A DNA stretch of 64,000 bases from an uncultured Gemmatimonadaceae bacterium (GTDB lineage Bacteria > Gemmatimonadota > Gemmatimonadetes > Gemmatimonadales > Gemmatimonadaceae). Of this stretch, positions 17,481 through 20,767 are shown piece by piece. The notes beneath the pieces are model-generated. The model had not been told where the DNA came from and searched no databases. It saw only the letters and a program-made list of their open reading frames with translations. The stretch is from assembly GCA_963817955.1 (NCBI GenBank), contig CAWFQK010000004.1:96001-160000 (forward strand), given 5' to 3'. Position 1 is the first letter of the stretch. Every line of letters begins with the position of its first letter. The position numbers were made by a program, and so were the translations under genes.

Positions 17481-18794
17481 ATAAGCCGCGATTATATCGA
17501 CGTCACGCCGCCGGTCGAGCGGGCGCTCCTCGTGGGTGCGCCGCTCAAGCGACCCGGCGCCCGTCGCGTGACCGACGACCATCTCCGCGAGCTGGCCGAG
17601 CTGGCTGATACGGCCGGCGCGGTGGTGATCGGCGAGATGATTCAGCAGATCGACCGCCCGCATCCCGGGACCTATCTCGGTAAGGGAAAGATCGACGAGC
17701 TTCGCCAACGTGTCGTCGACACCGGCGCGACGCTTGTCATTTTCGATGACGAGCTGTCGCCGAGTCAGGGCAAGAACATCGAGGACGCGATCGGCACGCG
17801 TGTCATGGATCGAGCCGAACTCATTCTCGACATCTTCGCGACGCGCGCGCGTACGAGTGAGGCCAAGGTGCAGGTTGAGCTCGCGCAACTCGAGTACATG
17901 CTGCCTCGCCTCACCCGCATGTGGACGCACCTCGAGAAGTTCCGCGGCGGTATCGGCGTGCGCGGACCAGGGGAAACCCAGCTCGAGACGGACCGGCGGC
18001 TGATCGGCCACCGGATCAAGGTGCTGCGCCAGCGACTCCAGGATGTGCAACAAAGCCGGGCCGTCCAGCGCCAGTCGCGCCAATTGGAGTTCAGGGCGTC
18101 GCTCGTCGGCTACACGAACACCGGCAAGTCGTCGATCCTGCGCGCACTGTCGGGGCAGGAGGTGTTCGTCGAAGATCGACTCTTCGCGACGCTCGATCCG
18201 TTGACGCGAGACGTCGATCTGGGGGACCGGGCACACGTGCTGATCACCGATACGGTGGGCTTCATCCGAAAACTGCCCCACCACCTGGTCGCGTCCTTTC
18301 GCGCGACGCTCGAGGAGACACGGGACGCGGATCTCCTCCTCCACGTGATCGACGCCAGCGCCCCGACCTGGGAAGAGCAGCGGCTCGTCGTCGAACAGGT
18401 GCTCGACGATCTCGGGGTGAACGACCGTCCGAAACTGCTTGTGTTCAACAAGATCGACCTCCTTGGCCACGACGCCTTGCTCGCGTTGCAGGAACGCATC
18501 TGCGCGCTCGTGCCCTCGGCGGTGTTCGTGTCGGCAACGGCCGAAGGGGGCCTCGAACCTCTCCGGCGCGCGCTCGCGGCGGCCATGCGGCAGCGCCGTC
18601 CCCTCACGCGCATCAGCATGTCGCCGTCAGACGGAAGGCTGCTCGCTGAGATCCATCGCGACGGCGAAGTGATCGAGCAGCACATGGAAGGCGACTGCCT
18701 CGTCGTCGAGGCCCGGGTCGATGACGCACTCGCCGGCCGCCTGAGGCGTGCCGGCGCCGAAGTAACCAGCAACGGAAAAGCCCCGCGCGAATGA
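17481..18794 (+). CDS. hflX: GTPase HflX (probable non-canonical ATA start at 17481)
   Basis: ERALLVG, GKGKIDEL, QVELAQLEY, GPGETQLE, VGYTNTGKS, LFATLD, DTVGFI, NKID; GAGGAG lies 6 nt before the in-frame ATA. Confidence 0.95.
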   Translation: MSRDYIDVTPPVERALLVGAPLKRPGARRVTDDHLRELAELADTAGAVVIGEMIQQIDRPHPGTYLGKGKIDELRQRVVDTGATLVIFDDELSPSQGKNIEDAIGTRVMDRAELILDIFATRARTSEAKVQVELAQLEYMLPRLTRMWTHLEKFRGGIGVRGPGETQLETDRRLIGHRIKVLRQRLQDVQQSRAVQRQSRQLEFRASLVGYTNTGKSSILRALSGQEVFVEDRLFATLDPLTRDVDLGDRAHVLITDTVGFIRKLPHHLVASFRATLEETRDADLLLHVIDASAPTWEEQRLVVEQVLDDLGVNDRPKLLVFNKIDLLGHDALLALQERICALVPSAVFVSATAEGGLEPLRRALAAAMRQRRPLTRISMSPSDGRLLAEIHRDGEVIEQHMEGDCLVVEARVDDALAGRLRRAGAEVTSNGKAPRE

Positions 18795-18834
18795 CCTTCG
18801 CGTCGGACATCTTGGCCCTTGCGCTGACCCCCTG

Positions 18835-18879
18835 TTTTCGGAATTAATATATAGGACTACGCTCGTCGCACGACGAGCG
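18835..18879 (+). promoter_or_regulatory. AT-rich -10-like patch followed by a perfect 9-bp hairpin
   Basis: TTTTCGGAATTAATATATAG in a GC-rich background (TAATAT at 18845-18850); CGCTCGTCG-CA-CGACGAGCG at 18860-18879. Confidence 0.45.
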
Positions 18880-18883
18880 GGTG

Positions 18884-20037
18884 CCGAGAAGCAATCGATC
18901 GCTACCCACAGGGGATGCGAGCGTGGCGAGAAGGGATCGGTCGGCGTGCAGAGGGGATGTCCGCGTGTTCAGGTGGGATCCCCGCCTGCTCAAGGGAATC
19001 CCTCGCGGTCGAGACCGAATTGACGCGTGTGCAGCTGGAATCCCTCGCGGTCGAGACCGAATGAGCGCCGATCGAGCAGGGACTCCGGCGCATCCAGCTC
19101 GCACCAGCCGCTGTTCAGGGCGGAGTCATTCCGGTCAAGAGGGAACACCCCGGTGTCGAGCCCGAATGCCGCTCGCGCTACACCGGACCGTCTCGCGCCA
19201 ACATGCCTCTCCCGCGCATCCACGCCCATCTCATGCGCTTCCACCGACAATCCTCGCCCCGTTCGCTGAGACACTGTGACGTCCACCTGAGATTGTGTCT
19301 CGGTCAGGTCGGAGTCTTTCCGGTTGAGATGGAACCCACGCGCGTCGAGGGGTGACTCGTCCGTGGTGAGATGGCACGGCGCCGGTGCAAGCACGAACCC
19401 CTCGCGTGCAAGCACGAACGCCTCGCGGTCAAGCACGAACCCCTCGCAATCAACATCGGACTCGCGGCCGTGCAGGAGGATTAGCGATTCATCTAGCTCG
19501 TATGCCGGCATGCTCACCACCAACTGCACGCCGTGCCGGAGGGATCGACCGGCGTCACGCGGGGAGTCGTCGCCGTCAACATCAGACTCTCGGGCGTCAA
19601 CGTCAGACTCTCGGCCGTTGAGACCTCTCTCGCGCGATGTCACGAGGGACTCATCCGTGTCGACGTGGAATAGATCCGTGTCAACGTGGAATGGGTCCGC
19701 GTCCACAGGCAATGGCTCGGCGTGCACGACCCAGTCGCTCGCGTTCAGCTGGGATGGCTGACGTAACAGCAGGAATGGCTGACGCAGCCGATCGAACCGT
19801 CTCGTGTGCAGGCGCCACGCCCGATCGTGAAGCTCGCAGGCAATCGTCTCGAGGACGGACTCCCCGCGTGACAGGCAAGACCACCGCTTCTCACGCAGAC
19901 ACCCACCGGTCGGAACGAGGCTCCGACTCTTCCGAACACGAGTCTGTCGGTTCCGACGACCATTCCGTCACTCCCGACGACCATTCCGTCGCGTCCGACG
20001 GCAATCGCGACACGTCTCACGCCGGTTGCTCGCTTTC
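18884..20037. repeat. Degenerate tandem array with 21-bp period (about 55 units)
   Basis: Near-identical neighbours: CAAGCACGAAC.CCTCGC x3 at 19388/19409/19430; TCAAC.TCAGACTCTCGG x2 at 19576/19597; CGACGACCATTCCGTC x2 at 19954/19975; an exact 26-mer repeated 42 bp apart at 18995/19037. Phase is held from 19009 onward. Confidence 0.85.
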
Positions 20038-20108
20038 TACTCCGGCGCGTCCGGCGCTCGCCGTGGTGCAGTTCTTTTTCAGCGCCCTCATGGCCACCTG
20101 AAGGCCAT

Positions 20109-20613
20109 ACGAAATACCGTGAAGGCAGTACCTTGGCGACGCTCTGCCGCAGCGCAGATTTTGTCGCGGCACGCCCCGTCTCGTTCGCCGCACCGAACGG
20201 CTCGACGATGCTACGGAAGGCATCGCAGCCGCCGCGAAGATTCGGCTCAAGGCAGTCCCGGACTTGAGCTCGCTGACGACGCCGCGGGATAATGTGTCGA
20301 TGGAGCGGTTGCTCGCTTCGGCGGCCGCGATTGCCGAAGCGCCCGGTGGCACGAGGCTGTGCTGATCGACGGCGGTCTGCCGACCAATCTTATCGCGCAG
20401 CTCGATTCGCAACTCCTGCCGCTCATCGGCACCGACCAGGCTTTGCTCGCCGCTTGGCAGGCCGCCAAGCGCATCCAGCGCAAACCCGCCATCAAGATCG
20501 GGTCTACGACTGCGACGACGCCGTCGCTGGTCATCATCCCACCGTTCCCCACATCACCCGTTACCACACCGCCGGTAACTCCTCCGCCGGCGAGTGAAGT
20601 GCTGGCCGCGTAG
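20109..20613 (+). pseudogene. Decayed gene for a predicted helical protein with a Pro/Thr-rich tail
   Basis: Three protein-like fragments in three frames: (ACG)KYREGSTLATLCRSADFVAA..., IAAAAKIRLKAVPDLSSL...MERLLASAAAIAEA, and HEAVLIDGGLPTNLIAQLDSQLLPLIGTDQALLAAWQAAKRIQRKP...; ACG sits where a start is expected, after GAAGG. Confidence 0.6.
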
Positions 20614-20646: not shown

Positions 20647-20680
20647 ACGCGAACGGCCGCCCGAGGGCGGCCGTTCGCGT
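20647..20680. terminator. Perfect 16-bp inverted repeat, likely a bidirectional terminator
   Basis: ACGCGAACGGCCGCCC-GA-GGGCGGCCGTTCGCGT between the convergent pseudogene and tRNA-Val. Confidence 0.75.
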
Positions 20681-20693
20681 TCCTCCCCAACGA

Positions 20694-20767
20694 TGGTCAC
20701 GCACGGACTCGAACCGTGGACCTCTGCTGTGTGAAAGCAGCGCTCTAACCAGCTGAGCTACGCGACC
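20694..20767 (-). tRNA. tRNA-Val (CAC); CCA not encoded
   Basis: Cloverleaf GGTCGCG...CTGCT-TTCACAC-AGCAG...GGTTCGAGTCC...CGTGACC-A. Confidence 0.95.

Follow-up and report, generated by a model that had tools for sequence, protein, structure and literature searches.

What keeps some 54 short units in phase, when any two of them are on average only 42% identical? The question is raised by an array lying between hflX and two minus-strand tRNAs in a Gemmatimonadaceae genome, within a window (by which we mean the whole stretch of DNA analysed) of 64,000 nucleotides. The initial annotation had proposed a cryptic period of 21 bp, and autocorrelation against shuffled sequence bears it out: from 18884 to 20037, identity reaches 0.485 at lag 21, 0.454 at lag 42 and 0.406 at lag 63, compared with a lag-21 identity of 0.27 ± 0.014 (maximum 0.314) in 300 shuffles. 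Further peaks stand at lags 84, 105 and 126, and the 64-kb window contains no second lag-21 peak comparable to that of the array. The single register of 43 core units and the six units upstream of it, one of them of 20 nt, are as had been described; the units downstream do follow another consensus, but we count about five of them instead of six. The reported occupancy of position 4 (A in 38/43 core units) and position 11 (A in 39/43) was reproduced, with A making up 19% of the array overall, and the four remaining units carry T at position 11. This position is A or T in all 48 units scored, while none of 206 control stretches of the window, each of 43 21-mers, displayed an all-A/T column. Tandem Repeats Finder recovered only six short pieces of the array, one of them at 19952-20000; local identical blocks and 42-bp higher-order repeats are present. 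With units 42% alike, two near-fixed positions and no Rfam CRISPR match (tRNAs are the only Rfam matches on the window), the array is indeed not CRISPR-like. A perfect 9-bp hairpin (CGCTCGTCG / CGACGAGCG) occupies 18860-18879 in the first degenerate unit and is absent from several paralogues.

Table 1. Features of the inserted unit and of its flanks in the window
Feature	Position	Strand	Basis or remark
hflX GTPase (flank, outside the unit)	17532-18794	+	Pfam PF13167, PF16360, PF01926
Unit head: leader with TTGCGC (18819-18824) and AT-rich TAATATATAGG core (18845-18855)	18803-18862	+	Conserved among paralogues
First six array units	18884-19008	+	All 21 nt long except one of 20 nt (18989-19008)
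Core array	19009-19911	+	21-nt units, 43 in number; only A or T at position 11
Tail units, about five, other consensus, same period	19912-20016	+	Lag-21 identity 13, 13, 18, 14, 10 of 21
Predicted H-type pseudoknot in the leader, 5' of the ribosome-binding site	20038-20087	+	ABA'B' pairing, compensatory changes in both stems
Pseudogene of a basic, all-helical family of ~214 aa	20109-20613	+	Alignment to an intact paralogue; family profile
Perfect 16-bp GC-rich hairpin	20647-20680		Paralogue homology stops sharply just 3'
tRNA-Val(CAC), convergent with hflX (flank, outside the unit)	20694-20767	-	Rfam match

The array does not stand alone in the genome. It belongs to an inserted unit of about 1.9 kb, present here as a decayed copy and dispersed elsewhere, in which an AT-rich head, the array, a leader with a pseudoknot, a gene and a GC hairpin follow each other. 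Homology to the paralogues begins at about 18803. In congeneric genomes, hflX is followed by tRNA-Val without any array at 29/29 loci, the gap keeping within ~0.3 kb at 28 of them, and we therefore regard the 1.9 kb as a lineage-specific insertion. At its left border, the end of hflX (18779-18802) forms the left arm of a terminator (AAAGCCCCGC), the right arm of which follows the stop codon in many congeners and is missing here; judging from these sequences, one half of this terminator appears to have given way to the unit.

With a profile built from the window array, the genome yielded 14 type A and 8 type B arrays of more than 700 bp, 22 in all, and a shuffled contig yielded none. Most of the paralogous arrays are 68-86% identical in DNA to the window unit. 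Further 21-bp arrays carry unrelated consensus sequences, at least six unrelated consensus types coexisting in this genome. The copies end sharply past the hairpin on the 3' side (11 copies) and are ragged on the 5' side (20 copies). The head motif itself occurs in 20 copies with ragged 5' limits; in other genomes, a related motif lies upstream of 8 of 21 loci of the same family, with 1 on the reverse strand and 0 downstream. It is possibly a promoter or an end signal. Eleven gene copies are full length without stops and many are broken. The window copy starts with ACG and has lost 127 nt after 20216, 1 nt near 20341 and 126 nt after 20396. Two otherwise intact copies (G000:C8:39194 and C2:999041) each bear one 1-nt insertion, through decay or assembly error.

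As to the mode of spread, 17 of 38 units sit between convergent genes, compared with 281 of 2070 gaps (rough gene calls). No target-site duplication was seen at 11 junctions, no long terminal inverted repeat was found on the unit, and its protein has no transposase match. The Y1 transposase domain PF01797 gave 0 matches in this genome, which is 94% complete, and an intron-type reverse transcriptase was not found there, the sole reverse transcriptase being retron-like. The latter (L168:1679-2194, at G000:C4:732178-732693) resembles best the retron St85 family, below the cut-off and from a partial sequence. Intergenic gaps of this genome (G000) also contain abundant runs of 7-bp repeats (GACACGG/GACACGA, CACTGAT, CACAACT; for instance at C9:47418-47492 and C4:1336139-1336223) and abundant hairpin repeats of the GTCATCCTGAGC type, both often adjoining units.

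A link between the array and the gene family downstream of it had been suggested, and co-occurrence in other genomes supports it. Within this genome, 20 of 23 gene loci have an array 5' on the same strand, one of them sharing it with a tandem neighbour, and 1 of 23 has an array 3'. Elsewhere, an array of period 21/42 lies upstream of 53 of 85 full-length homologous genes and downstream in 2 of 48, leaving 32 of the 85 without an upstream array; these genomes are kin and their counts are not independent samples. For a first set of loci from other genomes, scoring by best period gave an array upstream in 33/54 and downstream in 6/51, with one locus counted twice. Many arrays stand without a gene. 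Across loci, 591 of 627 unit steps are of exactly 21 nt and most others of 20 or 22, while the consensus varies from one locus to another, and the same period with unrelated sequence is encountered across two gene families. The gene family is present in 19/41 relatives and 54/251 genomes of the phylum (this genome included in both) and amounts to 1377 representatives at 50% identity. Scans of sequence collections for more relatives found nothing, and phage and plasmid collections held no match to the unit protein. Two particular arrangements were noticed: at L011 (G000:C5:176744-177932), L018 and L131, a minority, the 21-bp array lies 3' of the family gene, and at L010 (G000:C1:440892-442472) two divergent family genes follow in tandem behind one array.

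The protein consists of a core of 214 residues and a Pro/Thr/Ala-rich tail. All 132 members carry a net positive charge, their median pI being 10.3, and Arg is conserved at residues 70, 155 and 177. The predicted structure (pLDDT 97; the model from a single sequence was poor) is all-helical, with two helices of 55 residues, 33-88 and 137-191. By standard helix rise, such a rod of two helices would measure about 8 nm, near the 7 nm of 21 bp. Pfam and PDB-sequence searches returned no match to it, and a Foldseek comparison with the PDB and with viral models gave nothing at E<=0.001; the best VIA match, a chemoreceptor helical domain (Z 9.3, rmsd 3.9, 178 aligned), is below the level for helical bundles. 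An internal two-fold repeat was not supported (probability 4.6%). Some likeness exists to DUF6261 (PF19775) and PQLLE (NF052641), which are also helical proteins of ~200 aa of unknown function. NF052641 matches 7 of 132 members weakly (best E 2.9e-5, below the curated cut-off), DUF6261 appears in 0/132 among the 25 Pfam families listed, its curated cut-off not being reached, and neither model has a match in this genome. The family shows a weak resemblance to a cluster carrying DUF6261 in 32%. These proteins are distant relatives at most.

Does the array encode a protein? That the constraint acts on nucleotides and not on amino acids, as the initial annotation had it, is supported by pN/pS, by the codons at the anchor position and by recurring units of 20 nt. 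Between homologous units, pN/pS in the two candidate frames is 1.06 and 1.13 for type A and 1.28 and 0.75 for type B, compared with 0.18 and 0.33 for close pairs of intact genes and ~0.53 for distant ones. At the anchor, the minus frame encodes Ser, Phe, Leu, Cys, Trp and Arg; Leu is written TTR in 46/46 cases and Arg AGR in 21/21, and the genes of the window use CTN for 87% of Leu. Type B arrays repeat a 20-nt unit many times. In the window, a minus frame stays free of stops over 245 codons (ORF 18990-19727), and the reverse frame contains 16 stops where a column shuffle gives 60; most of this deficit disappears under a position-specific dinucleotide null (11 vs 20 for type A, 2 vs 2.9 for type B). 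On pN/pS, anchor codon choice and this null, we rejected a protein-coding array; no Pfam or NCBIfam match was obtained, and purifying selection on amino acids in a single frame was not found. A structured or paired RNA was rejected as well: there is no folding excess on either strand (z from -1.6 to +1.1), and covariation indicative of pairing was not clearly seen within the units.

Positions 4 and 11 are both as fully occupied as had been claimed, but only position 11 is protected from private change. Among type A paralogues it shows 0 private substitutions in 511, where about 10 would be expected (Fisher p = 0.002 for A sites), while the other 20 positions show 136 in 6866 (2%), evenly spread; position 4, with 8/379, mutates like other sites. 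Most of the type A copies scored in this way adjoin dead genes. Neither C nor G occurs at position 11 in any of 105 non-redundant type A units; type B is less strict. More generally, a column of at least 90% A/T is found in 25 of 38 fitted arrays and in 1 of 209 control stretches, though small arrays may be overfitted. Selection on each copy or active rewriting of the base may conserve position 11. A methylation site is insufficient as an explanation: GATC occurs in 20/105 and GANTC in 16/105 non-redundant type A units.

Between array and gene, the leader pseudoknot precedes the ribosome-binding site; it scores at least 36 in 14 of 27 loci and in 3 of 162 shuffles, and compensatory pairs occur in both stems (15 loci chosen by eye, including the window). 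It may be an autoregulatory site. A scan with the leader motif gave 20 matches, of which 2, both in Gemmatimonadota, precede a family gene and 18 do not. In a second family (f2), at L058, L059, L062, L071 and L075, a pseudoknot with compensatory pairs lies ~80 nt 5' of the start and displays the mirror loop pattern, with a long first loop and a short last one, as if the structure of the f1 family had been inverted. A sigma-54 motif (TGGCAC-N5-TTGC type) stands between array and gene in 23/61 loci, in reverse in 3/61 and downstream in 1/57. All 23 loci belong to f2, most with the motif 91-137 nt 5' of the start; at that score, it is absent from the family of the window gene, including the copies of this genome, and sigma-54 control of the window copy was accordingly discarded. 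As the f2 array is upstream of this motif, it lies outside the predicted transcript of the gene.

The deletions suffered by the broken copies provide another kind of evidence. Aligned to intact paralogues, eight independent deletions into the gene in this genome measure 127 nt (five copies), 126 (three), 315 or 314 (two), 272 (three), 273, 127, 249 and 404 nt; a ninth, of 167 nt relative to five orthologous loci, comes from another genome and was found after the pattern had been noticed. Seven of these nine DNA-measured lengths are at most 1 nt from a multiple of 21, the misses being 249 and 404. Among periods from 8 to 44, 21 fits best (p = 3e-5, uncorrected), in a small set for which the ±1 tolerance was fixed after the first eight deletions had been seen. 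Two deletions known at the protein level, one of 33 residues (about 99 nt) and one of 8 residues (about 24 nt), do not fit these multiples, and with them the score becomes 7/11 (p = 4e-4). Microhomology would lead us to expect 15% of such lengths, and other repeats of the genome gave 6/27 (Fisher p = 0.017). Gaps of 15, 32 and 23+8 nt in the repetitive Pro/Thr tail, gaps within arrays, and the loss in one relative that ends in arrays of unequal length were left out of the count.

These deletions fall 50-600 nt inside the gene, which, when intact, has no 21-nt period, only the 3-nt periodicity. Four of the seven near-multiples shift the frame, so selection for heptads in the protein is not the cause of their lengths. 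Of 18 copies scored, 13 have their start codon at unit position 9 and the others at 8 or 7. Unit position 15 would suit 4 of the 6 left breakpoints that were mapped, which is suggestive only. The rule does not extend to the whole unit: the head-to-hairpin distance is not constant modulo 21 in the 11 copies considered.

From the deletions inside a non-repetitive gene, mostly multiples of 21, we infer that the protein likely coats the DNA of the unit in 21-base steps. We propose, giving the idea an even chance, that the array is a DNA track on which the basic helical protein of the unit would assemble, one step per 21 bp. The earlier idea of units facing one side of the helix, as sites of protein binding or polymerisation, gains indirect support from the 21-multiple deletions and from the basic protein. 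The array forms the phased stretch, non-coding in its behaviour, of a unit inserted in many copies; the unit's own protein, presumably the binder, would assemble on it with 21 bp, that is two helical turns, per step, and the coat nucleated there would spread 3' into the adjacent gene. The protein would reach copies with a dead gene, such as that of the window, in trans. If the coat left DNA exposed at one phase only, deletions and array expansions would remove or add whole steps, and such handling might be tied to the spread of the unit into gaps between convergent genes. A nucleoprotein coat with a 21-nt step is the simplest way to account for a period whose sequence is not kept, a cognate protein that is basic and rod-shaped, the single protected base and the quantised deletions. 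A broader reading, possible but tentative, is that of a self-spreading element of soil Gemmatimonadota without transposase, with likely relatives in other phyla. Its small helical protein would polymerise along the element's DNA or RNA, 21 nt at each step, with nucleation at a cryptic array whose sequence co-evolves with each protein subtype, and the coat would both set the rule of 21 on rearrangements and drive the copying of autonomous and gene-dead copies into convergent-gene gaps.

Several other explanations have to be weighed against the coated track. The coat could form on RNA: a head-to-hairpin transcript would be covered by the unit protein, 21 nt per step, and copied into DNA again, with skips dropping whole steps and copies sharp at 3' and ragged at 5'. 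The sharp 3' limit at the hairpin and the variable 5' limits agree with this, as do the compensatory pairs of the leader pseudoknot, the basic protein and, in the family of the window gene, a promoter-like head 5' of the array; deletions in multiples of 21 fit it equally. We nevertheless think it unlikely, as this promoter-like head is itself within the copies, the only reverse transcriptase of the genome is retron-like, target-site duplications are missing, the f2 array lies upstream of the sigma-54 motif and the array bears no folding signal. Doubtful too is that a host protein, either a nucleoid protein or a sigma-54 activator, would bind the array as a phased control region, with the helical gene only a regulated passenger. 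Such a role would suit the sigma-54 motif between array and gene in 23/61 loci, the RpoN encoded in this genome and the persistence of gene-less arrays. Against it, every one of these 23 loci is in f2 and none in the family of the window gene, at least six unrelated consensus types in one genome are hard to reconcile with one host regulator, and a fixed upstream site leaves the 21-multiple deletions 50-600 nt inside the gene unexplained.

We consider quite improbable that the array is a neutral satellite, its units arising by slippage and in-register conversion and hitch-hiking with a duplicated gene. Local identical blocks and 42-bp higher-order repeats speak for it, as do private changes at about equal rate at all positions but 11, with no codon pattern; yet the exemption of position 11, the same period with unrelated sequence in two families, and the deletion lengths in a gene that is not periodic speak against it. 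The last explanation, a heptad-repeat protein encoded now or formerly, either by the minus-strand ORF 18990-19727 or in the reading frame of the gene, is largely refuted and very improbable. The minus frame is open across all 43 units, its codon use is weakly gene-like (0.057 per codon, around the first percentile of called genes), and some predicted homologues have heptad N-terminal extensions; these extensions, however, vary in sequence, frame and strand between loci, and a pN/pS of about 1, an anchor Leu written only TTR and an anchor Arg only AGR, repeated 20-nt units and the lack of any Pfam or NCBIfam match all go against a coding array. The host regulator, the neutral satellite and the heptad gene all account for less than a coat does. 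If the coated DNA track is right, this would be an undescribed nucleoprotein system, perhaps a new route of DNA spreading without recognisable transposase; deletion quanta of 21 nt in non-repetitive DNA and one protected base per unit predict a measurable footprint.

How does the unit relate to known systems? Plasmid iterons and sopC-type centromere arrays consist of near-identical sites that recur at whole helical turns beside a Rep or ParA/ParB gene, on a plasmid or at an origin. The unit shares with them whole-turn phased sites beside the gene for a candidate binder, but its units are divergent, and it is chromosomal, in many copies, flanked here by hflX and tRNAs, with no Rep, ParA or ParB and no plasmid match. 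It resembles insertion sequences and MITEs in its dispersed copies and in the empty site of relatives, and differs from them in that no long terminal inverted repeat, target-site duplication or transposase was found. With REP, REPIN and RAYT elements, as presented in the portions of PMC3733652 and PMC3116915 consulted, it has in common dispersed, mostly non-autonomous copies, convergent-gene gaps and a GC hairpin end; in these portions REP elements are without 21-bp array or helical gene. A REP-type tag was also rejected: a GTAG/GGAG-type tag adjoins the hairpin in 3/17 hairpin-bearing loci, and the GTAG type is found in 9/11 within two related subtypes of this genome. TIGR-Tas systems, according to the part of PMC12045711 consulted, combine a Nop-domain protein with 36-nt units that contain edge and loop repeats (UG...CCA, box C/D). 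Like them, the unit has a small protein gene beside a cryptic array in which few letters are fixed; its period is 21/42 and not 36, no motif is common to the loci, and no Nop domain appears among the Pfam, PDB-sequence or fold matches listed for its protein. The repeats of PMC8625621, in the part consulted, are of 52 nt.

There remain the repeats of Subirana and Messeguer (PMC8161180), which in the part of the article consulted are bacterial, non-coding tandem repeats of constant size, 20-21 nt (also 40-41 nt), and variable sequence. To judge from this part, the array shares with them the fixed period, several sequence families per genome, lineage specificity, short conserved letters, a non-coding character and proposed protein binding; a constant period with several unrelated families in one genome and non-coding behaviour are both what we found here. 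The same part mentions neither a partner gene nor a leader and reports neither signs of insertion nor a deletion ruler, and the search it describes accepts regular repeats, whereas the units of the window are only 42% alike. The literature searched holds no description of the unit (most subscription papers were outside reach, and the supplements of PMC8161180 may list related arrays). Constant-period, variable-sequence repeats of 20-21 nt form a class of bacterial DNA that has been described and not explained, and the unit offers a candidate cognate protein for such repeats, together with several natural protein-array pairs in one genome.
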